From Acidobacteriota bacterium (lineage in GTDB: Bacteria; Acidobacteriota; UBA6911), in the NCBI GenBank assembly GCA_963664705.1, contig OY761556.1:2304001-2368000 (forward strand): 64,000 nucleotides of DNA, written 5' to 3'. Positions 43,520 to 64,000 of this stretch are shown here, piece by piece (positions within the stretch are counted from its first letter, which is position 1; the number at the start of each line of letters is the position of its first letter). Position numbers and translations under genes: made by a program. Below the pieces are notes generated by a model. That model was not told where the DNA came from and made no database searches. It saw only the letters and a program-made list of their open reading frames with translations.

Positions 43520-44410
43520 CTAGCCGCCTATTTTCAAGCGGCCCGGGCTCTGTTGTCCGTAAGGATTCGTTTGAGAATTCAACACCGCAAGGGGATCAAC
43601 CGGTGTTCCCATACGAATCACTTCAAAATGAAGATGAGGACCGGTGCTGCGTCCTGTATTACCAACAGTGCCCAGGTTTGTCTCTGAATTGACGACATCC
43701 CCGGCCTTAACACTAATCGTGCCCAGATGCCCGTAACGCGTTTGAACTCCATCCGCGTGCTGCACCAGGACAGTATTGCCATATCCGCTCATGTATCCGG
43801 CGGAAACTACAGTCCCGGGCAATGCCGATACCACCCTCATCCCCTCGGGAGCCGCCAGATCCAATCCCTTGTGGAATCGAGCCTGGTGGGAGATCGGATC
43901 CTTCCGCATTCCGAATGCGGAGCTTATGTGCGCATGCACCGGAAGCTGCAGATCCGAAATATCCTCCCCCTCACACAGCGGGCTCGGTTGTTCCGTAGTT
44001 GCGGGAGCCTTGGTTCCAGAACCTGCCTCGGTTTCCTTGGTTTGACCGGGCTCCGACACTTTGGCCGATTCCCTTTCAGAGAGGCTTTTATATATGAGGT
44101 CCGAAATACCGAGAGCACCCCGCCGAGACATGCTCAGCGATATTTCCTGATCAAAAAGATCCGTATAGATAGATTTCCCAAAACCGCCTTCGAACAGGCC
44201 GGACTCTTCAACCGTTTCACGCATCACCTTCAACAGCTGCGACAGAAAGATGGCTTCAAACTCCTGAGAGACCTTCTTCAGTTCATTCGAGTTCTTCGGC
44301 CCGGTCGAATTCTGGACCGCGCGAACCTTTTCCTCCAGATGCGTGCCGTTGGATGTCAGGATATCCGTCGGAACCTGGGTCAGTGGAGTTAAGGTTAGTG
44401 AATTCTGCAC
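43520..44410 (-). CDS. flgJ: FlgJ rod-binding domain fused to an M23 peptidase
   Basis: LKKVSQEFEAIFLSQLLKVMRET (rod-binding); FHKGLD (HxxxD), TRYGHL, GRSTGPHLHFEV (M23). Confidence 0.88.
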   Translation of the reverse strand: MQNSLTLTPLTQVPTDILTSNGTHLEEKVRAVQNSTGPKNSNELKKVSQEFEAIFLSQLLKVMRETVEESGLFEGGFGKSIYTDLFDQEISLSMSRRGALGISDLIYKSLSERESAKVSEPGQTKETEAGSGTKAPATTEQPSPLCEGEDISDLQLPVHAHISSAFGMRKDPISHQARFHKGLDLAAPEGMRVVSALPGTVVSAGYMSGYGNTVLVQHADGVQTRYGHLGTISVKAGDVVNSETNLGTVGNTGRSTGPHLHFEVIRMGTPVDPLAVLNSQTNPYGQQSPGRLKIGG

Positions 44411-48270: not shown

Positions 48271-49008
48271 CTATTTGCCCAGTTTCTCAATGGCTTTTGA
48301 ATTGATGTCATTCATCAGAAGACTCATGCTCTTCTGGATAGACTCGAATTGCCTCATGATCTCCACCATACGAACCAAGGATGAGACAGGATTGACGTTA
48401 GAAGTTTCCAGGTATCCGGATTTGACGGTTGCAGTGGATGGGCGCTCCGAAGCCTGGTCGCCCTTTACACGAAAGAGGGAGTTCCCTTCCTTTTCCAGTG
48501 TCGACAATTTGTCAAATGTGACAATTTTCAGACGATCCACTCTTGAGTTTTCAAGCAGGACCTCACCATCCGAGTTAATTTGAATCTTGCCGGGGCCCAG
48601 AGTAATGGGCTTGCCGGTGACTCCAAGCACTGGGCTGCCATCTGTGGTGGTAAGGACGGATTTTGCATTCAAATGCAGGCTTCCATTTCGCGTATAGCGA
48701 ACCCCCTGCGGCGCGTTCACTGCAAGAAAGCCATTGCCCTCCAGGGCAACATCCAGATCGCGATTCGTAAACGTAAATGAACTGCCGGCAGTATTTAGGG
48801 ATTTCCCAATCTGCACGGGTCGATTGATGGCCGATTCAAGCGTGGCGGCCTTGCCGGTTTGGTCCAGTGATTCCTCAAGCACAGAGATGAAGGTATTCTC
48901 CTCCTTGAACCCGGTCGTATTTGCGTTCGCCAGGTTGTTGGCGAGTACGTCCAGAGCCTCTGACTGAGCTTTGAGTCCTGTATACGCTGTATAAAGTCCG
49001 CTGTTCAC
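48271..49008 (-). CDS. flgF: Proximal rod protein
   Basis: SGLYTA, ANNLANANTTGFK, YTRNG, LETSNVNPV, RQFESIQK; GTG start with SD GAGG. Confidence 0.92.
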   Translation of the reverse strand: MNSGLYTAYTGLKAQSEALDVLANNLANANTTGFKEENTFISVLEESLDQTGKAATLESAINRPVQIGKSLNTAGSSFTFTNRDLDVALEGNGFLAVNAPQGVRYTRNGSLHLNAKSVLTTTDGSPVLGVTGKPITLGPGKIQINSDGEVLLENSRVDRLKIVTFDKLSTLEKEGNSLFRVKGDQASERPSTATVKSGYLETSNVNPVSSLVRMVEIMRQFESIQKSMSLLMNDINSKAIEKLGK

Positions 49009-49064: not shown

Positions 49065-49080
49065 AGCAACTTCCGTGCCA
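49065..49080 (-). promoter_or_regulatory. sigma54 promoter of flgF-G-A-H-I-J
   Basis: TGGCACGGAAGTTGCT, a perfect TGGCAC-N5-TTGC match. Confidence 0.85.
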
Positions 49081-49201: not shown

Positions 49202-50086
49202 TTAGCTGCCGCTCTCGTACCCAACGGCCATTGGGTCGTATTTGGTCGATTCCTGGCTATGGGCGACCGGGTGTGCAAACCGGAAGAAGTGGTGATGGGA
49301 TTCCGAAGGAAAATCCAGCCTCACCCAAATGAAATCCTGCACCAGTTCAGCCTGAATATCGAAAGCGCGGAGATTGATGGCCGTTGAGATAATCTCATTC
49401 CCGATTTCAACCAGCTCGCTGAGCGTATCAAAGGTCGGCACACTGGATAGGTCCAGATCTTCCGGCTCGTACCATTGCTCCAGGAGTCGATTGATGGCAG
49501 ATTGATCTCCGATGTATGTAACGATGCCCTTGCGGACCATGCGGCGAATGGCTTCCTGTGCATTGAAGTTGACCGGTGCCGAAACCGCAACTCGAAGCGA
49601 GGTCATTGAATCGTCAAAGCCCACCGGAACGAGCCCGGAGCATTTGGCCACCTTTCCAGGGATCATGCGCACAGCATCGTTTTTTGCCGCTGCGTTCTGC
49701 AGATTGATCAGGGGCAATCCGAATTGCTTGGCAAGCGCGGTTGTGATCTGATGTTCTTCGACAAAACCCAATCGAAGAAGCCACTCGCCGATGCGACCTT
49801 CTTTTCTTTCCGTCTGAAGTTGGATCGCCTGATCCAGTTGCTCTCGCGTAACAAAAGCGGTTTGCATCAGAATCGTCCCCAGTTTCGGCCTGGGAAAGGT
49901 GCGCATATTCCCGTGCTGCAATCTCCGCCACTTTTCTATCAGTTCAGTCTCACAATGAGCACGCAGGCACGCATCGCTGCAAAAGTCCTTGCCTTCATAT
50001 CTGGGAGGACGGCGACGATTGAGAAACAGGCTGAAATCGGATCGGATTTTTGCGCAATCTTTTCGATAACACTGATATTTAGACAT
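49202..50086 (-). CDS. Stand-alone MshEN (GspE/PilB N-terminal) domain protein with N-terminal Cys4 Zn-finger; putative c-di-GMP receptor
   Basis: C6-x4-C11...FC36SDAC40; tandem motifs KLGTILMQTAFVTREQLDQAIQLQ and RIGEWLLRLGFVEEHQITTALAKQ; no Walker A. Confidence 0.8.
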   Translation of the reverse strand: MSKYQCYRKDCAKIRSDFSLFLNRRRPPRYEGKDFCSDACLRAHCETELIEKWRRLQHGNMRTFPRPKLGTILMQTAFVTREQLDQAIQLQTERKEGRIGEWLLRLGFVEEHQITTALAKQFGLPLINLQNAAAKNDAVRMIPGKVAKCSGLVPVGFDDSMTSLRVAVSAPVNFNAQEAIRRMVRKGIVTYIGDQSAINRLLEQWYEPEDLDLSSVPTFDTLSELVEIGNEIISTAINLRAFDIQAELVQDFIWVRLDFPSESHHHFFRFAHPVAHSQESTKYDPMAVGYESGS

Positions 50087-50495
50087 ATTGTTTCACCTGC
50101 ATCTTGCCGGCGGAATAGCCTTCCCCGCCCGTGTATTTACTGAGGTTCAGGATCAGCTCAGCCTCTCCCACGGGAGCTTTGAGACGTTTCACGATATCTT
50201 CCAGAGGGACACCCTGGCGCGAAAGCGCCAATACCTGGTGCCGACGCTCCAGCGGAAGATTGGAATCATGCGAGGGGATGCTTAATTCCATAATCCGTTC
50301 TTCCATTTCTTCGAGGCGGCCGGAGGATTTCTTGTGCGACTGCATTTGTATCTCCGCCAGTTGGCTCACTGCGTCCGAAGCGCGCCGCAGTTCCTGTTCG
50401 AGGGTTTGAATTCGCTGAAGCATTTTTCTCATCGCGCTCCAGCAAAACCAGATACAACCGGCAACCGCGACAAAAACCAGGAAGGTATTTAGCAT
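50079..50495 (-). CDS. Membrane-anchored coiled-coil protein with C-terminal HTH-like motif (DUF2802/DUF6115-like)
   Basis: N-terminal TM, coiled coil, LSRQG...EDIVKRL..PVGEAELIL. Confidence 0.7.
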   Translation of the reverse strand: MLNTFLVFVAVAGCIWFCWSAMRKMLQRIQTLEQELRRASDAVSQLAEIQMQSHKKSSGRLEEMEERIMELSIPSHDSNLPLERRHQVLALSRQGVPLEDIVKRLKAPVGEAELILNLSKYTGGEGYSAGKMQVKQYV

Positions 50496-50524: not shown

Positions 50525-51388
50525 CTAACGATTCAGATTCGATGAGGCCTGGATTGCCGTCTCAATCTCCATTGCAAGTTCAACCAACACCGGCTCACCA
50601 AGTTTCAGGAACTCGGCCGATGTCTCCTTCTCCAGAACCAGTTTCTCATCTTTTGAGAAACCGACACCCAGCAGGGTCATGAACAAATCGGCCAGGTTGA
50701 TGATGCAAGCCAACTGCTTGTAGGTAGGGGCCGAGAGCGGATCATGATGAAAGCCGACAGCTTCTGCCAGTTGCGGTGGAAAATTCCATTTCCGGGCTAA
50801 TAGAGCGCCTACATGCGCATGGGAGAACCCAAACGATGTGAGCTCGAGATCATTGAAACTGCCATGTTTTCCATACACGGCGCTGATGATTTCGGTATAG
50901 CGGTCACGCAGGTTCTGCAATAAAACGGGCTTGCCGATATCGTGCATCAGGCCGCAAATCAAGGCTTCCTCCATGTCCTGGCCTCTGACTCTCCGCGCGA
51001 TCGCACGTGCAGCCAGGGCAGTTCCCCAGGAATGTTCAGCCATCAGCTTTGCACCCAGATCCTTGGCGGTCTGAAAGACCGACTCTACAGAGGCTGCCAT
51101 CAGGACGGATTTCACCGCATCCATTCCCAGGACGGTTATCGCATGGGAGACCGTGGATACTTCACTTCTCAGGGCATACATGGCCGAATTGACAATCCTC
51201 AGCATCTTGGCCGACAGAGCCTCATCCTTTGAAATCAATAACTGTAGTCTGTAAACCGAAGCATCCGGGTCCATCGCCAGCTCGAGTGCCCTCATGACGG
51301 TGGTCGGCATGGGAGGCAGGTCTGTCACTTTTGCGACAAGAGCATTGAGATTCAGTATTGGTTGAGGGTTGTTTTGAACAGTTGCCAT
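50525..51388 (-). CDS. HDOD domain protein
   Basis: LPPMP, LSAKMLRIVNSA, HAITVLG, GLMHDIGK, HAHVGALLARKWNFP. Confidence 0.92.
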   Translation of the reverse strand: MATVQNNPQPILNLNALVAKVTDLPPMPTTVMRALELAMDPDASVYRLQLLISKDEALSAKMLRIVNSAMYALRSEVSTVSHAITVLGMDAVKSVLMAASVESVFQTAKDLGAKLMAEHSWGTALAARAIARRVRGQDMEEALICGLMHDIGKPVLLQNLRDRYTEIISAVYGKHGSFNDLELTSFGFSHAHVGALLARKWNFPPQLAEAVGFHHDPLSAPTYKQLACIINLADLFMTLLGVGFSKDEKLVLEKETSAEFLKLGEPVLVELAMEIETAIQASSNLNR

Positions 51389-51450: not shown

Positions 51451-51759
51451 TTATCCAAGTGACCGAATGCGATCTGCGGTGCTTTCAACTTCAAGAATGC
51501 GCACGCCATAATTGCCTTCCACCATGACAACCTCCCCTTTGGCGATGGGCTTGCGGTTGACGATGATGGTCACTGGATCATTAACAGCCTTATCCAGCTC
51601 TATGACGGACCCTGCCCCGAGCTTCAAAATGTCACGCAGCTGCATTTCGGTGTTGCCAAAAGAAACAGCCACCGGCAACTCCACATCCAGCAACAGATCG
51701 ATGTTCCAGTTGCCTCCATTTTTCTGTGCCACCGATCCTTGTTCCCCCATATCTGTCAC
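51451..51759 (-). CDS. fliN: Motor switch protein FliN
   Basis: NIDLLLDVEL, LGAGSVIELDK, IAKGEVV...YGVRI; SD GGGAGG. Confidence 0.93.
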   Translation of the reverse strand: MTDMGEQGSVAQKNGGNWNIDLLLDVELPVAVSFGNTEMQLRDILKLGAGSVIELDKAVNDPVTIIVNRKPIAKGEVVMVEGNYGVRILEVESTADRIRSLG

Positions 51760-51777: not shown

Positions 51778-52749
51778 TTAGGCAGTAATTCTGTTGGATA
51801 TTTCGAAAGCTCTTTTACCGCGCCGCTGCACAATCTTGCCGGCAAACTTGGCGATTCCGCCAACACACAGCAGTACCGGATCCCCAATTCGCTCATTGAG
51901 TTCAATGACATCGCCCACCGAAACCGTGAGCAGGTCGCTCATGGTCAGTTTCGAACTCCGGATTTCGCTTCCCAGTGGAAGCGCCACCGGCTTCATCAGC
52001 TCGGAAATCACGCCGGCCACGCTGCCTATTGCCTTTTGCCTTGGCGCATTCCACTGCTGATCGAATTTATTGCGCAGCATTTTGAGGATTCGGGATGGAA
52101 TACATATATTCATCATTCCCGAGTTCTCTCCCGATTTCACCTCGAGGTGCACAACAATCACCGCTTCGGCCGGAGATACGATCTGGAACATTTGGGACTT
52201 GGTGCCCTTCCCTTCGAGATAGAATTCCAGTTCTATGACCGGATGCCATGCCTCGCCCAAATCTCTCATCACAAGCTTGAGCACACCTTCGATGACGTTC
52301 AGTTCTATTTCCGTCAGATTACGGTTTTCGGTAAACGGCCGCCCGGGACCGCCCAGGATCATGTCGATCAGGGGCAGCACCAATGACGGATTCATCTCCA
52401 GCGCAATATTTCCATCCAGCGGACGCATTCCCAGACTCGCAAACAGCGTCGGATCGGAGAGCGACTTGATGAATGAGGAATAGGAAACCTGTTCAAGCGA
52501 GGAGATGCTGACATCTACGAAAGCCCGAAGGTATGCGGAGAGGGACGATGCGAAGTTGCGCCCGAAATGTTCGTGCAACAGGTGAATCGACCGCATCTGG
52601 TCCTGCGAAATCCTATCGGCACTATGGAAGTCGTAATTGGTCACCTTGCGTTCAGGCGGCTTTTCCGCCTGTTCGCCCAGGCTCAAGTCTTCCGTCGACA
52701 TTGCGGAAAACAGAGCATTAATTTCGTCCTGCGATAAAACTTTATCCAT
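51778..52749 (-). CDS. fliM: Motor switch protein FliM
   Basis: VLSQDEINALF, YDF, MILGG.G..RNLTEIE, C-terminal SpoA domain. Confidence 0.95.
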   Translation of the reverse strand: MDKVLSQDEINALFSAMSTEDLSLGEQAEKPPERKVTNYDFHSADRISQDQMRSIHLLHEHFGRNFASSLSAYLRAFVDVSISSLEQVSYSSFIKSLSDPTLFASLGMRPLDGNIALEMNPSLVLPLIDMILGGPGRPFTENRNLTEIELNVIEGVLKLVMRDLGEAWHPVIELEFYLEGKGTKSQMFQIVSPAEAVIVVHLEVKSGENSGMMNICIPSRILKMLRNKFDQQWNAPRQKAIGSVAGVISELMKPVALPLGSEIRSSKLTMSDLLTVSVGDVIELNERIGDPVLLCVGGIAKFAGKIVQRRGKRAFEISNRITA

Positions 52750-52767: not shown

Positions 52768-53538
52768 CTAATCCTGTCCGTTTACCTTCCTTAGCTTGGT
52801 CCGAAGCCGCAGCATTGCCTTGGTATGGAGCTGCGACACTCTTGATTCATTGACTCCGAGGACTTTTCCGATTTCCTTCATTGTCAATTCGTCAAAATAA
52901 TAAAGGGACACGACAAGACGTTCTTTTTTGGGCAAGGTATCGATCGCGGTGCTCAGAATCGCCTGGATCTCAGTCTTGTGAAAAACAAAAAACGGATCCA
53001 TCTGCGGCGCATCCGGTACATACTTCACCAGCGGCTCGCTGTTCTTCTCGTCATCCTGAGAGGATAGCTCCTGGAAGCTGCCGAGATTCAATCCCTTGAT
53101 TTGATCTACAAGTTCATAGAACTCTTCAAGTGAGATCTCCATTTCATCGCAGACTTCCTTATCCGTGGCGGGACGGCCCAGGCGCTGCTCGAGCTCCCGA
53201 TACACGCGTTCCAGGTCTTTGCTTTTCTTTCTCAGGGAGCGCGGCGCCCAGTCGAGATTGCGAAGGCTGTCAAGAATGGCACCCTTGATGCGCAGCTCGG
53301 CATAGGTCTTGAATTTCACGCCTCGGTTCGGATCGAATTTCTCGATAGCGTCCAATAAACCGAGAATTCCCGCGCTTACGAGATCATTCAGCTCGACATG
53401 CGATGGCAGTTTGGCGGAGATCCGCTGCGCGATGTATTTGATCTGCGGCAGATGCTCCAGAATAAGTTCGTCCCTTTCGGGATTGGCTGGGATAGGCGGT
53501 GCATACATTTTTTGTTGGCTCGACAATTCCTGCATCAT
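52768..53538 (-). CDS. fliA: RNA polymerase sigma28
   Basis: DLVSAGILGLLDA, FKTYAELRIKGAILDSLRNLDWAPRS, ESRVSQLH. Confidence 0.96.
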   Translation of the reverse strand: MMQELSSQQKMYAPPIPANPERDELILEHLPQIKYIAQRISAKLPSHVELNDLVSAGILGLLDAIEKFDPNRGVKFKTYAELRIKGAILDSLRNLDWAPRSLRKKSKDLERVYRELEQRLGRPATDKEVCDEMEISLEEFYELVDQIKGLNLGSFQELSSQDDEKNSEPLVKYVPDAPQMDPFFVFHKTEIQAILSTAIDTLPKKERLVVSLYYFDELTMKEIGKVLGVNESRVSQLHTKAMLRLRTKLRKVNGQD

Positions 53539-53835
53539 CGTATTCCTCTTGAACAGAGCCACCGTAACGGCCGGCTCCTAGGCTATTCAATTGGCTGTCA
53601 AAGTCTCCCTAAAGAGGATCAGAAGACTTGATGTCCATTCGAGATAATGGCAATGATTCTTGGCTATCGGGAGAGCATCCTTCCTGCTTGGAACGGGATC
53701 TCTCCGTTGGAGGTTGGCAGCGAGTCGGAGTGTATCGGCGACGGCCCGCATCGTATACAACTTCTGTACTGATCGCACCAGGATCCCTCCGAATCTCAAC
53801 TCGCGTGTTTCACTCGATCCTGAATGCGCGTTCAC

Positions 53836-54744
53836 TTAATTCACCCAGTCGTTTAGAAGTTTTTCCCACACCAGGCCATCGACAGCGGTTCCGGCACCTT
53901 CCTGCTGAGCCACTCTCCGCGCGAGCTCTCGAAAGCAACGGCTCGCCGGTGCGCTCGGAAACCGGTGGGTCACGAGCATCTGGCTCCGAACTGCCTGAGT
54001 GACGTGGGGATCTCTTTCGATATGGCCGAGATATTCTATTTCCCTGCTGAGAAATCGCTTGACCACGGAATTGATCTGGCAGAATACCTCGTGCGCATCC
54101 TCGGCTTGATCGACCGAGTTGATGAGCACCTGGACATGCTTGTCGTGATCTTCAGCCAGGATGATCTTGATAACGGCATAGGCATCGACAATGGCTGTCG
54201 GCTCCGGAGCGCTGACCACGATGACTTCCTGCGCTGAAAGGAGAAAGTGGATCACATTTCGTGAAATGCCTGCGGCGGTATCGATAATGAAATAGTCTGT
54301 ATCGGAATCCAGATTCGTAAAGCTCTCTACCAGGTGATTGCGCTGAGCCAGCGTCAATTCCGACATCCTCTGCAATCCGGAACTGGCTGGAATGATCTGT
54401 ATGCCTTTGGGGCCCTGAACCATGATCTCCGTCAGCGTCTTGTTGCCAAACAGCACATGCCCGAGGTGATACCGCGGAGTCAGCCCAAGAAGAACATCCA
54501 GGTTGGCCAGCCCGAAATCCGCATCCAGGACGACAACCTTCTTGCCCAGCTCCGACAGACTGACCGACAGATTGGCCACAACATTGGTCTTTCCAACCCC
54601 GCCTTTCCCACTCGTCACGGCAAGAATCTTCGGGCCTTTGCTCCTTGCCTTGAGCAATGCTCCTTTTGTATCCGACATACCCATGGAACGGGATTTTGTC
54701 TGCTGATTGCCTGCGGTACCGCGAAGCTGATAGGGAGGCGTCAT
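53836..54744 (-). CDS. flhG: MinD-like flagellar number regulator
   Basis: SGKGGVGKTN, DADFGLANLD, IDTAAGIS, PEPTAIVDAY; downstream of flhF. Confidence 0.93.
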   Translation of the reverse strand: MTPPYQLRGTAGNQQTKSRSMGMSDTKGALLKARSKGPKILAVTSGKGGVGKTNVVANLSVSLSELGKKVVVLDADFGLANLDVLLGLTPRYHLGHVLFGNKTLTEIMVQGPKGIQIIPASSGLQRMSELTLAQRNHLVESFTNLDSDTDYFIIDTAAGISRNVIHFLLSAQEVIVVSAPEPTAIVDAYAVIKIILAEDHDKHVQVLINSVDQAEDAHEVFCQINSVVKRFLSREIEYLGHIERDPHVTQAVRSQMLVTHRFPSAPASRCFRELARRVAQQEGAGTAVDGLVWEKLLNDWVN

Positions 54745-54747
54745 AAT

Positions 54748-56001
54748 CTATTCCTTTATTGCGCTCATGTTTGGGTTCAAAACAATGTCGATGATCCGGT
54801 CTTTCGGAACTGCATGAAGGTCGTCAGGTACCCTCTGGCCATTGCTGTAGTAAGAGAACGATTTCTGCGTCCGAATCAACTCATGCAAAATCGGGCCCGG
54901 AGTGGAGGTTTCATCGAGCTTGGTAAACAACAGATGATCCGGATGGCACATTTCGAAACGGTCGATCATTTCCCTCATATCCGACTGCTTGGTTGCCGCA
55001 CTTAAAACAAGATGCCTCTCGATAAATTCGGATTCGCTGAGGTAGGAAGCCAAGCTGCGCATCTGCTCCAGATCTCGTGGTCCGTGCCCTGCGGTATCGA
55101 TCAGGATGTAGTCCCGCTGGGAGTTTTCGCTGATAGCCTGCGGCAACTGGGATACCTGGTCCACAAAACGGAATGGAATTCCCATCAGACCGGCATAGGA
55201 GCGCAGCTGCTCAACGGCGCCAATCCGATATCCATCTGTTGTCATAAGAAGCACCCTTTTCTTCTGCTGCAATGCGAGACGTGCGGCAAGTTTGGCAATC
55301 GATGTCGTTTTTCCGACACCCGTCGGTCCAAGAAAGGTAACCACCTTCTTGGCCGGCATGCCGTTTAACGTTGAAGGATCGGCTAATAAGGCCTGTGCGG
55401 CCTGTGTTACCGATTTGACCAACGCCGTGCGGCTCCGTCGCTGCCCTGCCGTCAGGCAGTTCATAGCTGTCTTGAGCAATTCGCATGCCAAAGAAGCGTC
55501 AATGCCGCAATTAATTAATTCCTGATAAAGAGAAGCCGGGATGCGCCCCTTGACAGGCAGTTCAGACTCGGAGGAAACCGGCTTTTGTATCGGAGGTTCT
55601 ATCCGGGCAACCGCGATCCTTTTTTTTGCTTTTGCCGTTTTGGCCTTTGTTGCCGCCTGGTTTCGGATCTGCGCAGGAGAATATGTCTGTGGCTCTGCTT
55701 CTTCGGCCTGGGCTTCGCATCTCAATTGTCCCGGAATCACCAACGGCGGAATGATCAGTTCGTCAGGATCTCTCTCGAGCGACGCTGCCGCATTTCCAAT
55801 TTCATGACTGGGAGCAAATACATCGATCCCATCGCTATCATCGATGGCAGCTACGACTTCGAATCCGGACGAAGTCCCCCAAACTCCGGAACGTCGCGGG
55901 ATTTCTTTGGTGGACAGGAGCAGAGCATCGGGACCCAGGTGGGCTTTGACCTGCCGCAGTGCTTCTGCCATTGTTTTGGTATAGAACGTCTTGATCCGCA
56001 T
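54748..56001 (-). CDS. flhF: SRP-type GTPase FlhF
   Basis: MRIKTF...EAL..VK..LGPDA, GPTGVGKTTS, DTAG, TKLDET, GQRVPDD. Confidence 0.95.
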   Translation of the reverse strand: MRIKTFYTKTMAEALRQVKAHLGPDALLLSTKEIPRRSGVWGTSSGFEVVAAIDDSDGIDVFAPSHEIGNAAASLERDPDELIIPPLVIPGQLRCEAQAEEAEPQTYSPAQIRNQAATKAKTAKAKKRIAVARIEPPIQKPVSSESELPVKGRIPASLYQELINCGIDASLACELLKTAMNCLTAGQRRSRTALVKSVTQAAQALLADPSTLNGMPAKKVVTFLGPTGVGKTTSIAKLAARLALQQKKRVLLMTTDGYRIGAVEQLRSYAGLMGIPFRFVDQVSQLPQAISENSQRDYILIDTAGHGPRDLEQMRSLASYLSESEFIERHLVLSAATKQSDMREMIDRFEMCHPDHLLFTKLDETSTPGPILHELIRTQKSFSYYSNGQRVPDDLHAVPKDRIIDIVLNPNMSAIKE

Positions 56002-56002
56002 T

Positions 56003-58087
56003 CTAAATCACCATTCCAAGAGAAAGGACCCGAATGCTCGGGGGAATTTCGCTGTGCGAAAGAATCGCAACATTCGGTAGAAATCGTTCCAGTAATTGGC
56101 GTACGTGTGAACGAACGGTCGGAGAACAAAGCACGACCGGGTTCCCGCTGCTCCCCGCAGTATCGAGAACGCGACGGAAACGCGCCATGATGTCCTTGGC
56201 CTGACGCGGTTCCAATGCAAGGTAGGAACCCTGGTCGGAATGCACCACGCCATCCGCAAGGTTCTTTTCCAGATCCGGACTGATCGTGAATACAGGCAGA
56301 TCGCCGTCTTCCGTCTGGTAGGGTTTGCAGATGGAACGGCCAAGAGATTGACGGCAATACTCCGTCAAGGCAGTGACATTCTTCGTATAAGTACCGTAAT
56401 CAGCCAGTGTTTCCAAAATTGTGACGGCATCGCGGATGCTGACCCGTTCCTTGAGCAGATTCTGGAATACTTTTTGAACCTCTCCCACCGAGAGAACTTT
56501 CGGAACCAGCTCTTCAACAACCTTTGGATGAGTCTTCGACACGGTATCCAGAAGGTTCTTGGCTTCCTGTCGGCCGAGCAGCTCATGCGCCTGTGATTTG
56601 ATGATTTCGGTCAGATGCGTTGCCAGCACCGTTGCGGGATCCACCAGCGTGTATCCGGCAAGCTGTGCCCGCTCACGATCCTGCGACTTGATCCAGCGAG
56701 CTTGCAGCCCGAACGCCGGCTCAACCGTGGCCATCCCTGGAACCTCTTCGCGGGCCGTTCCCGGATTGATTGCCAGCAGATGATCCTGAATCAGTTCTCC
56801 GCGGGCAATCTGAACGCCTTTGAGCAGAATCGCATATTGCCGGGGATTCAACTGAAGGTTGTCGGTAATGTGTACCGGCGGAACAACCAGCCCCATTTCA
56901 AGCGCAATCTGCCTGCGAATGGATTTGATTCTATCGAGGAAATCTCCGCCCTGGCTCGCATCAACGTACCGGATCAAGCCGTAACCCATCTCGATTCCAA
57001 GCAGATCCACCTTGAGTAGCCCTTCGATCTTGTCTTTGGGCTTCTCGGCCTCCGCCTTTTCCAGTTTTGCCTTCTCCAGAGCAGCCGTTTCATCGATCCG
57101 GGCATTCCGTCTCCGATAGGCCAACACCGCCGTCGCGCAGCCCAGGACGAAAAATGGAACAAAGGGCAGGCCTGGCACGAGACTGAAGAAAAACAGGAAG
57201 CCCGAGCCAATCGCGATCGGTATGTGATTGGTAAACAACTGCCGGACAACATCCTCTCCGAGATTGGACTCCGAGGCCGCCCGGGTTGTGATGATACCGC
57301 CGGCAACCGAGATCAGCAGCGAAGGGATAGCAGTCACAAGACCGTCACCAATCGTCAAAATCGTGAACCGCTGGGCTGCCTCCGTTAACTCCATACCGTT
57401 CTGAAGAACACCGATCAGGAACCCGCCGATAATGTTGATCGTCATGATGATCATGCTGGCAACAGCATCGCGGGCCGTAAAACGAATCGCGCCGTCCATA
57501 GCTCCGTAAAACTCGGCTTCTTTGGAAATCTGCTCCCGGCGCGCTCTCGCTTCCGTTTCGTTGATGATTCCGGCGTTCATGTCCGCATCGATCGCCATCT
57601 GCTTGCCTGGCATGGCGTCCAAGGTGAAGCGGGCGGACACTTCCGAAATACGGATGGAGCCGTGGTTGATGACCATGTATTGAATGGCTATGAGGACGAG
57701 AAATACGACAATACCGACAAAATAATTGCCTCCGACCACAAACTGCCCGAAGGACTGGATGACCTTCCCTGCCGCATCTTCGCCTTCAGCCCCGTTTAAG
57801 AGAATCAAACGGGTTGAGGCAACGTTCAACGCCAGGCGGAACAGGGTGATGATGAGGAGAAGTGATGGAAATACTGAAAAATGTACAGGTTGCAGTATGT
57901 ACATTGAGACCAGCATGACAATAATCGACAGCGTGAAATTCAAGCTGATCAGGAGATCCATGACGATGGTGGGCATAGGCAGCACCATGACGATCAGGAT
58001 TCCCATCACTCCCACGGGGATAACTAAATGAAGCTTACCGAGGATATTTGAAAGGTTTGGAATTGCGGTATCTTCTGCAACACTCAT
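56003..58087 (-). CDS. flhA: Flagellar export gate protein
   Basis: FRLALNVASTR, EVSARFTLDAMPGKQMAIDAD, FYGAMDGA. Confidence 0.97.
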   Translation of the reverse strand: MSVAEDTAIPNLSNILGKLHLVIPVGVMGILIVMVLPMPTIVMDLLISLNFTLSIIVMLVSMYILQPVHFSVFPSLLLIITLFRLALNVASTRLILLNGAEGEDAAGKVIQSFGQFVVGGNYFVGIVVFLVLIAIQYMVINHGSIRISEVSARFTLDAMPGKQMAIDADMNAGIINETEARARREQISKEAEFYGAMDGAIRFTARDAVASMIIMTINIIGGFLIGVLQNGMELTEAAQRFTILTIGDGLVTAIPSLLISVAGGIITTRAASESNLGEDVVRQLFTNHIPIAIGSGFLFFFSLVPGLPFVPFFVLGCATAVLAYRRRNARIDETAALEKAKLEKAEAEKPKDKIEGLLKVDLLGIEMGYGLIRYVDASQGGDFLDRIKSIRRQIALEMGLVVPPVHITDNLQLNPRQYAILLKGVQIARGELIQDHLLAINPGTAREEVPGMATVEPAFGLQARWIKSQDRERAQLAGYTLVDPATVLATHLTEIIKSQAHELLGRQEAKNLLDTVSKTHPKVVEELVPKVLSVGEVQKVFQNLLKERVSIRDAVTILETLADYGTYTKNVTALTEYCRQSLGRSICKPYQTEDGDLPVFTISPDLEKNLADGVVHSDQGSYLALEPRQAKDIMARFRRVLDTAGSSGNPVVLCSPTVRSHVRQLLERFLPNVAILSHSEIPPSIRVLSLGMVI

Positions 58088-58140: not shown

Positions 58141-58156
58141 TGCAAATCGCGTACCA
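58141..58156 (-). promoter_or_regulatory. Putative sigma54 promoter of the flhA-flhF-flhG-fliA-fliM-fliN operon
   Basis: TGGTACGCGATTTGCA (GG-N10-GC). Confidence 0.75.
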
Positions 58157-61842: not shown

Positions 61843-62130
61843 CTATCTCCCGGTATAAAAATCGGTCAATCGAATTCCGGTAGAACCTTCAAGCTTGATC
61901 ACCTCGCCCGAGGCAACCAGCGTCCCATTCATCAGTATGTCCACGTTTTCACCCGCCGATTTTTCCATTTCTATCAGCGAGCTTGGCTCGAGTTGCAAAA
62001 TATCGCGAACCCTCATGGATCGAGTGCCAAGCTGGATGGATATCCTTATGGGCACGTCTCCAAAAAACTGCATTTCCTCAAACGCGCTTCGTCCTGAACT
62101 TTTATCGACTTCACTGGGACTGTCTGACAT
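61843..62130 (-). CDS. fliN: Second FliN (SpoA domain)
   Basis: DVPIRISIQLG, ILQL..SSLIEMEKSAGE.VDI..NG..VASGEV, GIRL. Confidence 0.88.
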   Translation of the reverse strand: MSDSPSEVDKSSGRSAFEEMQFFGDVPIRISIQLGTRSMRVRDILQLEPSSLIEMEKSAGENVDILMNGTLVASGEVIKLEGSTGIRLTDFYTGR

Positions 62131-62147
62131 ACACCAACCTCGGATCT

Positions 62148-62678
62148 CTAGAGTTGAACAACGAAATCGACGATGTACACTTCCAGAACTTTTGTTTCCG
62201 GAGAAATGGTGTTAATTTTGGTTCGAATTTCATTTCTGAGCAGTTCCTTTCCTTCCGGACTCAGCACCTGCTCGGCCTTTTTCGAAGTCAATAAAGAGAT
62301 TATGGTGTCCCGTATTGCGGGGATGGCGGCCCCCTTTTTCATTTCCTCATTCGGTTCTTTTGCCAGACCGAGTTGAAACGTTGCCTTTACAAAGCGGACC
62401 TCGTCCGTATCCGCAAGATTCAGCAGGAAAGGATCGAGAGCAATCGTCGCTTTCACCTCTTCTTTTTCGGGCGCCGGTTTCGCCTTGCTTTCCGCCTTCG
62501 CTCCCCTGGCGTGAAACACCACATAGGCGGCAGCTCCGCCTCCCAAAACCAGAACTAACAGCCCGATCAGCATAAAGAGCTTCTTTTTCGATTTAGCCGG
62601 GGCTTCTTCGCCGGTTTTGTTTTCAACGATAGGCTTATCCATCTTTTTGGTTTCCGATTTCGCAGCAGCATCAGCCAT
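62148..62678 (-). CDS. fliL: Basal-body protein FliL
   Basis: KKKLF..TM GGGAAAY, LDPFLLNLAD, IRDTIISLL, EGKELLRNEI, DFVVQ. Confidence 0.93.
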   Translation of the reverse strand: MADAAAKSETKKMDKPIVENKTGEEAPAKSKKKLFMLIGLLVLVLGGGAAAYVVFHARGAKAESKAKPAPEKEEVKATIALDPFLLNLADTDEVRFVKATFQLGLAKEPNEEMKKGAAIPAIRDTIISLLTSKKAEQVLSPEGKELLRNEIRTKINTISPETKVLEVYIVDFVVQL

Positions 62679-62974: not shown

Positions 62975-64000
62975 TCAAACATGCTCGATCGATTGACAAA
63001 TTTCTGACTCCTCAGTCAAGAGTCTGCCTTCATCGGCGAAGCATGCCTGGTTTTTCCCGTTGCGCTTGGCCTCGTACATAGCCTCATCGGCGCAGGAGAT
63101 GATCTGCCGTGGTTCCAGCAGATTGAAGGTAGAACAGCAGGAAACTCCGATGCTGATGGTCCGATGAACGTGGCCGTCCGGAATGAGAAACGGATACGCC
63201 ATAAAGGCGGCCCGGAGATTCTCCGCGACTCTCGCGGCGCCGGCTGAGTTTGTCCGCGGCAAAAGAACCGTAAACTCCTCGCCTCCATAACGAGCGACGA
63301 AATCGGTCACCCGAAGCGACCGTCGAAGAAGGGAGCCCGCCTGACGCAGGACTTCATCCCCAGTCTGATGTCCGTGAATATCGTTGATCTGTTTGAAATC
63401 ATCAATATCGATCATCAGACAGCTCAATACCTCTCCATAGCGGCGAACCCGGGCCACTTCCATTTCAAGCTGTTCAAACAGCCTGCGTTTGTTAAAAAGC
63501 CCCGTGGATTCGTCAGTATGGGCCAATTCCTGAAGTTTGAGATTCAGCTGCGTCAGCCGCATCTCATGATCCCGGAGCCGGGCGTTGGCGGTCGCCAGCT
63601 CCTGGCGCGTGAGCACGTTATCCAATGATGACGAAAGATGGGCCGCCACCAGCAGTCCCAGGTGGTACTCAAGCTTATCAAAACGGTTTGAATGATTGGA
63701 TACCAACTCCAGGCAGCCAAGCGTCCTCCTCATTGCGGTAAATGGAAGTATCATCACCGAACGAGGGAGCGTCGCCTCGGCCGCGCCGGAAAACCTGCGA
63801 ATTTTCCTCGACGCCTGAGTATCCGGAACCCACAATGGCGCTGCGGACCGGATAACCGCTCCGGTAAGGCCACTGCTTAGCGGGATCAGCTCCTCACTTT
63901 TGGGAATACGCGGGCCGGCGAGGCGAATACGCCGATATTTGGATCCATCGACAATGCAGAGTCGTATGGGATCATCCGGGAAATAAGCTTGAAAATAGGT
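62975..64000 (-). CDS. GAF-GGDEF diguanylate cyclase (5' end outside window)
   Basis: Frame open to base 64000; TDESTGLFNKR, DIDDFKQIND.HGH..GD, I-site RVTD, RYGGEEF. Confidence 0.92.
   Translation of the reverse strand, partial: TYFQAYFPDDPIRLCIVDGSKYRRIRLAGPRIPKSEELIPLSSGLTGAVIRSAAPLWVPDTQASRKIRRFSGAAEATLPRSVMILPFTAMRRTLGCLELVSNHSNRFDKLEYHLGLLVAAHLSSSLDNVLTRQELATANARLRDHEMRLTQLNLKLQELAHTDESTGLFNKRRLFEQLEMEVARVRRYGEVLSCLMIDIDDFKQINDIHGHQTGDEVLRQAGSLLRRSLRVTDFVARYGGEEFTVLLPRTNSAGAARVAENLRAAFMAYPFLIPDGHVHRTISIGVSCCSTFNLLEPRQIISCADEAMYEAKRNGKNQACFADEGRLLTEESEICQSIEHV

Follow-up and report, generated by a model that had tools for sequence, protein, structure and literature searches.

What an MshEN protein might be doing at the end of a flagellar switch operon is the question raised by one reading frame in the window, the whole 64,000-nucleotide stretch of DNA analysed here. 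Most of what is known of MshEN concerns its role as c-di-GMP input for the motors of pili and type II secretion, and the flagellar adaptors for this signal that have been described are mainly PilZ proteins; MotI is a PilZ-type flagellar c-di-GMP brake. The original prediction had seen in this frame a candidate c-di-GMP effector of the flagellum outside the PilZ family. The gene and its parts are laid out as follows.

49202..50086, minus strand: finger-MshEN gene, 294 aa, with a four-Cys finger, MshEN_N, MshEN_C and half of a PilB N2 domain, without ATPase
49967..50071, minus strand: four-Cys finger, C6-x4-C11...F35-C36-S-x2-C40, with a basic-aromatic insert; putatively zinc-binding
49724..49885, minus strand: MshEN_N, two 24-residue c-di-GMP motifs, residues 68–121 (NF053729; model against 5HTL)
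49460..49723, minus strand: MshEN_C/T2SSE_N subdomain, residues 122–209 (PF05157, 47.1 bits)
49274..49441, minus strand: C-terminal alpha-beta-beta-beta domain, residues 216–271, first half of the PilB/GspE N2 domain with W254-x-R256 kept (profile and model)

Architecture and descent of the finger-MshEN protein

The frame starts with an ATG at 50086 and, as had been noted, overlaps the upstream membrane protein gene by 8 nt (stop codon at 50079–50081). The original prediction had also described two tandem 24-residue MshEN motifs, the first with K for R and A for G, and these were recovered at residues 68–91 and 98–121, the two substitutions being K68 and A77. Motif 1 shows a further departure (I88 for L), motif 2 carries R98, G100 and Q121, and the spacer between them is 6 residues and not 5. 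The HMM scan that had been suggested gave matches above cut-off to both the curated NCBIfam c-di-GMP motif model NF053729 (48.7 bits against 38, E 4.6e-13, residues 68–121) and Pfam MshEN PF05157 (47.1 bits against 23.1, residues 122–209). The lack of an ATPase was likewise confirmed, PF00437 having no match in the Pfam scan and the protein ending at 294 aa, while TIGR02538 reached 58.6 bits against a cut-off of 675.65. A PilZ domain was absent from the same Pfam scan.

The C-terminal domain (residues 216–271) had been overlooked. With the single sequence, a weak alignment already continues beyond MshEN to the beginning of PilB N2, and a profile of 75 family sequences (A3) matched PilB 5zfr residues 7–232 in one stretch through position 260 (E 1.3e-40). 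Only the first helix and three strands of N2 are present, with W254 in 74/75 and R256 in 71/75 family sequences. Homology thus covers the first ~230 PilB residues, and the protein stops within N2.

A structural model built from A3 (pLDDT 91, pTM 0.85) replaced an earlier one from 42 close sequences, which had a pTM of 0.59. It has the four-helix MshEN_N and alpha/beta MshEN_C fold of ligand-bound MshEN 5HTL (TM 0.81, rmsd 2.7 Å; in a second comparison Z 17.7, rmsd 2.6, 138 aligned), and its best structural matches are ligand-bound MshEN and PilF. Residues 121–170 of EpsE (1p9w) match model residues 223–271 (Z 4.4, rmsd 2.2, 49 aligned). By its motifs and predicted fold, the protein is to be placed with the MshEN receptors and is not a PilB/GspE ATPase. 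Many fold alignments run from residue 30 to 271 with ~74 aligned, which we read as a composite of the finger and the C-terminal domain: the finger hairpin and helix are predicted to pack on the C-terminal sheet to form one domain, with MshEN inserted between.

In MshEN the ligand is contacted by Gly11/Gly40, two Leu triangles and Gln32/Gln61 (PMC5013675, available part), for which the equivalents here are G70, G100, L69/I114/L118, L84/I88/I99, Q91 and Q121. Family sequences retain G70 in 74/75, G100 in 73/75, Q91 in 67/75 and Q121 in 75/75, and the whole hydrophobic/Gly/Q121 core is present in 70/75 at a mean column identity of 24%. An extended consensus in an excerpt of PMC11731258 allows R, K or L at the motif start, and K68 and R98 agree with it at the two motifs. 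Position 68 is R/K/L in 40/75 and Pro in 28/75 family sequences, strict R/K at both motif starts together with both Gln occurs in only 19/75, and P0169 and P0206 are clearly degenerate (2/75). Lys at motif position 1, also found in PilF GSPII-B, is compatible with tight binding, PilF GSPII-B having an affinity of 6 nM, and Chloracidobacterium PilB is cited as binding at 53 nM (both from the available part of PMC11731258). The MshEN_C Asp is missing, with A170 in the place of PilF D266. This residue (D108/D266) is auxiliary, being dispensable in MshE (PMC5013675, in part), and D266A merely weakens PilF binding, to 27 nM or ~4-fold (PMC11731258, in part). Two residues before motif 1, R66 is present in 59/75 and matches MshE Arg7 of the basic patch. 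Judged from its sequence, the 294-aa protein very probably binds c-di-GMP. The host genome has 17 GGDEF matches; GGDEF content is no discriminator, being found in 72/72 genomes with and without the gene. One GGDEF domain lies within the flagellar cluster between flgE and fliL (63047–63523, minus strand) and is a possible local source of c-di-GMP.

The N-terminal cysteines had been described as a TRASH-like finger, possibly gated by metal or redox state. The cysteine pattern is present (C6 and C11 in 74/75, C36 and C40 in 75/75), but no TRASH or YHS model matched, and the gating proposal found no support: the cysteines look structural, because they are this widely kept and the finger packs on the C-terminal domain in the model. 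The pattern C-x2/4-C...[FYW]-C-S-x2-C holds in 35/35 rows of alignment A8, which excludes one locus (L060) whose sequence misfits it. Family profiles matched some A8 rows (Metallothio_Pro 5/35, best E 3e-4; VATC 2/35; zf-FCS 1/35, E 0.11; YacG 1/35) and none matched the 294-aa protein itself. Searching PDB sequences with the finger profile returned only E above 0.1, and an atlas search with residues 1–60 gave no usable match; with the whole protein, Acidobacteriota clusters were matched. No treble-clef entries appeared in the fold lists, the whole-model searches being filled by other domains, and the finger may still be a treble clef. Its insert has a net charge of +2 or more in 70/75 and W/F in 69/75. 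An amphipathic helix in the insert was considered and rejected (mean hydrophobic moment 0.575 against 0.603 shuffled, with 277/300 shuffles as high).

We found 237 homologs among 861 candidates, the best 120 of the 237 being 61–84% identical and mostly 294 aa, and a profile search of representatives yielded more full-length members at 19–55% identity. The dN/dS ratio was 0.12 against 0.125 for fliM in one clearly unsaturated pair, the remaining 20 pairs being saturated, or almost so, at synonymous sites. A quick tree placed 54 family rows (a subset of the 75) on one side and 23 ATPases on the other with support of 98. It is extremely unlikely that the gene is a decaying remnant of a truncated pilB/gspE, a fate which the original prediction had named among its possible refutations. 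The homology to PilB that breaks off inside N2 would fit such a remnant, but length is constant in the best 120 of 237 homologs, dN/dS is low, the N-terminal finger is new and its profile matched no ATPase-length frame in 301 genomes, the gene keeps a fixed position across about 12 families, and an intact PilB is encoded elsewhere in the host genome (G000:C1:3265144-3266880, L225). On this comparison of sequences, the protein is derived from PilB by descent and is an old, maintained truncation. Fused longer forms were absent from a search with A3 at E 1e-30, a threshold that was too strict, and an A1 search for them returned 11 ordinary PilB/GspE-type proteins covering ≤67% of the query, which is weak evidence.

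Two further observations concern these sequences. In host PilB the first motif position is Gln and the place of MshE Gln61 is taken by Lys, as in two relatives, so that it appears to have a poorer c-di-GMP site than the flagellar paralog. A frameshift interrupts the gene in one genome (L023, G017); as flgG, flgF, flhF and flhA are frameshifted in the same assembly, sequencing error is the likely cause.

The flagellar locus and its distribution across the phylum

The finger-MshEN gene is set among the following features.

48271..49008, minus strand: flgF, downstream neighbour (Pfam rod families)
49065..49080, minus strand: perfect sigma54-type site before flgF (consensus scan)
50079..50495, minus strand: small membrane protein, 138 aa, DUF6115/DUF2802 type, FipA-like, the overlapping upstream gene (PF19610, 28.1 bits against a cut-off of 27)
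50525..51388, minus strand: HDOD protein, in some relatives only (PF08668)
51451..51759, minus strand: fliN, the most constant upstream neighbour (PF01052)
51778..52749, minus strand: fliM (PF02154)
52768..58087, minus strand: fliA, flhG, flhF and flhA, upstream in the run (names recognised from sequences)
58141..58156, minus strand: sigma54-type site with 1 mismatch before flhA, likely run start (consensus scan)

The gene had been described as the last of a flhA-flhF-flhG-fliA-fliM-fliN run. It likely does end the flhA...fliN transcript here, since a perfect sigma54-type site precedes flgF, but HDOD and DUF6115/DUF2802-like genes separate it from fliN. That site has a similar counterpart in 8/29 related loci, and other lineages have the gene continuing into flgF. 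A further promoter may lie in the 274-nt gap that precedes fliA; consensus scans for sigma70 and sigma28 sites gave nothing above chance. The membrane protein matched PF10975 (DUF2802) at 25 bits, under the cut-off of 33.5, and DUF6115 we take to be linked to SwrB.

Several other features of the region were recorded. Between 27426 and 62735 there are six sigma54-type sites (≤1 mismatch) against 2.2 expected, three of them preceding flgF, flhA and fliL, and an NtrC-like gene with a sensor kinase lies just outside the window (G000:C1:2378250-2380916). A second FliN-family gene is found between fliL and fliO (61843–62211, minus strand), and a FlgJ-like rod-binding domain is fused to a peptidase M23 domain (43520–44410, minus strand). 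Two related genomes have cheX-cheY-cheX after the gene in place of flgF (L016:10574-12080 and L017:10550-11995).

Across the phylum, the finger-MshEN family was detected in 42/301 genomes, all 42 belonging to the 68 genomes in which FliM matched strongly (E under 1e-20) and none to the other 233, the carriers being kin and not independent trials, in which gene order can persist by inheritance. These 42 comprise 38 full-architecture A3 hits, three short forms and one contig-end fragment; the 233 include one unpublished genome (G052), which no claim uses. The neighbourhood survey proposed earlier found fixed fliM/fliN linkage in 36/42, where the gene lies downstream of fliM-fliN on one contig, 0.07–3 kb from fliN where measured. 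Among the remaining six, one is split over two contig ends in matching order and five are elsewhere (L074, L087, L088, L075 and L226; families f27 and f80). Three of the five displaced copies are 228–235 aa long, lack the C-terminal domain and have degenerate motifs. In the other loci read, no pil or gsp cluster was seen by eye.

The same association was seen in the 31 near genomes, where 14 have the full form, 14/14 of these are FliM-positive and 12 have the two within ~3 kb on one contig, with 4 FliM-positive genomes lacking the family and 0/13 FliM-less genomes carrying it. A scan with alignment A4 recovered 382 relatives, and among the 80 matches listed, nearly all titled Acidobacteriaceae or Acidobacteria, 80/80 have fliN directly upstream. 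In four named loci (L135, L179, L188 and L192) the gene is kept with fliN although fliM was not detected there; elsewhere in these genomes FliM gave only a weak match in three cases and no match in the fourth. Named carriers are Edaphobacter modestus DSM 18101, Granulicella rosea DSM 18704 and Tunturiibacter species. Profiles A3 and A8 were built partly from counted loci, five of them found by looking behind fliM, so that their scores lack independence. The members of the first profile, A2, were picked on sequence grounds except for three loci, and later profiles gave no new full-length match outside FliM-positive genomes. The gene is an accessory and dispensable one and not a core flagellar part, since 26/68 strong-FliM genomes lack the family and no remnant was present in 11/11 gene-less loci examined. 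Mirror-tree distance correlations over 30 loci single out no partner (0.81 for fliM, 0.83 for fliN, 0.84 for fliA, 0.88 for flgG and 0.85 for flgF).

Two matches in FliM-less genomes were set aside, one to a finger-less 203-aa MshEN protein (G217) and one to a stop-broken 70-aa frame at E 4.6e-4 (G050). A different stand-alone MshEN protein of 203 aa, with no finger and a likely coiled-coil tail, is encoded in a FliM-less genome (L089:2487-3095), and short MshEN frames recur in family f32. Two of the displaced copies described above lie near the same glycosyltransferase-like gene.

Candidate partners and alternative roles

Our favoured reading, held at close to an even chance, is that this ATPase-less PilB derivative is a likely c-di-GMP-binding accessory regulator at the cytoplasmic face of the flagellum, most likely at the C-ring or export apparatus. 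Binding of c-di-GMP would move MshEN relative to the composite domain, and this movement would change the grip of the composite domain on a partner, which may be FliN/FliM or the export complex, so that assembly or rotation would be curbed at high c-di-GMP. The basic-aromatic finger insert could help to hold the protein at an anionic surface such as the membrane. As the gene is in a run with flhA, fliM and fliN, its product would be expected during basal-body construction, and the early basal-body genes around it speak for an effect on assembly or the switch. When the protein was modelled in complex with FliM, FliN and c-di-GMP, the score was 0.00 against a mark of 0.32, which counts neither way.

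The choice of partner is narrowed by family f40, whose loci lack the FipA-like gene, flhF and flhG, yet in which the gene still abuts fliN with its motifs intact, and no FlhF ortholog was found in 5/5 genomes. A partner must occur wherever the gene does; from f40 and the loci in which fliM was not detected, FliN/the C-ring, the export apparatus and FliA remain, and FlhF/FipA are excluded as a required partner. The host genome also encodes a YcgR-type PilZNR-PilZ protein unlinked to the flagellar cluster (G000:C1:2077211-2077921, L224), a conventional brake candidate. The finger-MshEN protein is thus at most a second route and does not replace the PilZ brake.

We know of no link between MshEN and control of sigma28-family factors. 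A c-di-GMP-gated regulator of flagellar transcription, binding FliA (sigma28), FlgM or a sigma54 activator and not the motor, would nevertheless suit the presence of fliA in the same run in 42/42 loci tested and in 71/80 named loci listed, as well as the basic finger insert. The best matches of the composite domain are RsbW/SpoIIAB-type anti-sigma chains (Z 5.7–6.3, rmsd 2.5–2.7, 74–81 aligned, 10–14% identity, discontinuous in the model), although Z ~6 at such identity is common among unrelated folds, and Pfam scans of the 294-aa protein and the family found no HATPase family. By analogy, a precedent for c-di-GMP control of a sigma28-family factor is RsiG, which c-di-GMP arms against WhiG (PMC7005675 and PMC12871210, both in part), an analogy that draws only on the middling likeness of our model to other anti-sigma factors. 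Many of these loci also contain FlgM, however, and the gene abuts fliN or the FipA-like gene and never fliA, and we consider a transcriptional role unlikely. It is more doubtful still that, together with the overlapping FipA-like membrane protein and FlhF/FlhG, the protein determines where flagella are placed or how many are made in response to c-di-GMP. The 8-nt overlap here, the small membrane-protein gene directly preceding in most lineages outside f40 and the binding of FipA (DUF2802) to FlhF (PMC11620751, available part) speak for placement, but f40 retains the gene at loci from which the membrane gene, flhF and flhG are absent, these three persist at loci that have lost the gene (L090, L091, L110, L111 and L113), and the DUF2802 match is under the Pfam cut-off.

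Two readings would take c-di-GMP or the motor out of the account. As a c-di-GMP-independent assembly chaperone or scaffold of the basal body, the protein would keep its motif for folding only, in line with the variable motif-start residues (Pro at position 68 in over a third of the family), the two degenerate members and the GGDEF counts, which do not separate carriers from non-carriers. XpsE, which does not bind, has lost contact residues and kept the fold (PMC5013675, in part); the Gly11/Gly40/Gln61 equivalents lost there are kept here in 73–75/75, and we regard a pure scaffold as quite unlikely too. Lower again do we rate a decoy between flagellum and pilus, in which the PilB-like N1 and half-N2 surfaces would bind PilM/PilB and dampen type IV pilus assembly. 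The protein keeps exactly the PilB docking parts, its model matching the 2bh1 and 7lkm complexes, and the genome has pilB-pilT-pilC and pilMNOPQ-like clusters (names recognised from sequence; PilB confirmed). Against this, identity between lineages is ~20% and the family branches separately from the ATPases in the quick tree, both of which count against a decoy because a decoy should track its own PilB, and none of the loci read has the gene next to pil genes. The regulator at the C-ring or export apparatus is the reading that we carry forward.

Relation to known systems and meaning

MshE (5HTL, Vibrio cholerae), PilF GSPII-B (8PDK, Thermus thermophilus) and PilB share with the 294-aa protein the same two motifs, contacts, subdomains and predicted fold. 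Unlike them, it has neither the ATPase nor the MshEN_C Asp, and has instead half of N2, a four-Cys finger and a place in a flagellar and not a pil or gsp operon. Non-ATPase MshEN proteins are known (NfrB, Bd2402, PA3740, FrgA and MshEN-CheX) and likewise use MshEN as a regulatory module outside pilus motors, and none is described in a flagellar operon or with a finger and half-N2 in the available part of PMC5013675. The PilZ brakes YcgR, FlgZ and PlzD (PMC9303241, in part) are likely alike in working as c-di-GMP adaptors on the flagellum, but their fold and motif are unrelated, whereas the finger-MshEN gene sits inside the basal-body operon. FipA (DUF2802; PMC11620751, in part) and SwrB resemble the upstream membrane protein in being small, single-pass and at the end of a flagellar operon. 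This likeness belongs to the neighbour and not to the finger-MshEN gene, which survives loss of the neighbour. In the literature searched, mainly open-access papers, we found no description of the finger-MshEN architecture or of an MshEN protein in a flagellar operon. New here are the derivation of the C-terminus from half of N2, the prediction of a composite domain, a count over the phylum that includes negatives and the removal of FlhF/FipA from the possible required partners.

Our broader proposal, put forward tentatively and with less than even odds, is that early in Acidobacteriota the c-di-GMP-sensing head of PilB lost its ATPase, gained a zinc finger that makes up a new output domain together with half of N2, and became part of the flagellar switch operon. 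A c-di-GMP switch outside the PilZ family, working directly on the C-ring or export gate, would thereby have arisen phylum-wide. If true, c-di-GMP could reach the flagellum by a second structural path, and the case would show clearly how a component of one motility machine is reused in another. Motility control in Acidobacteriota would also become approachable for the first time, the family being found in 42/68 of the flagellated genomes sampled.
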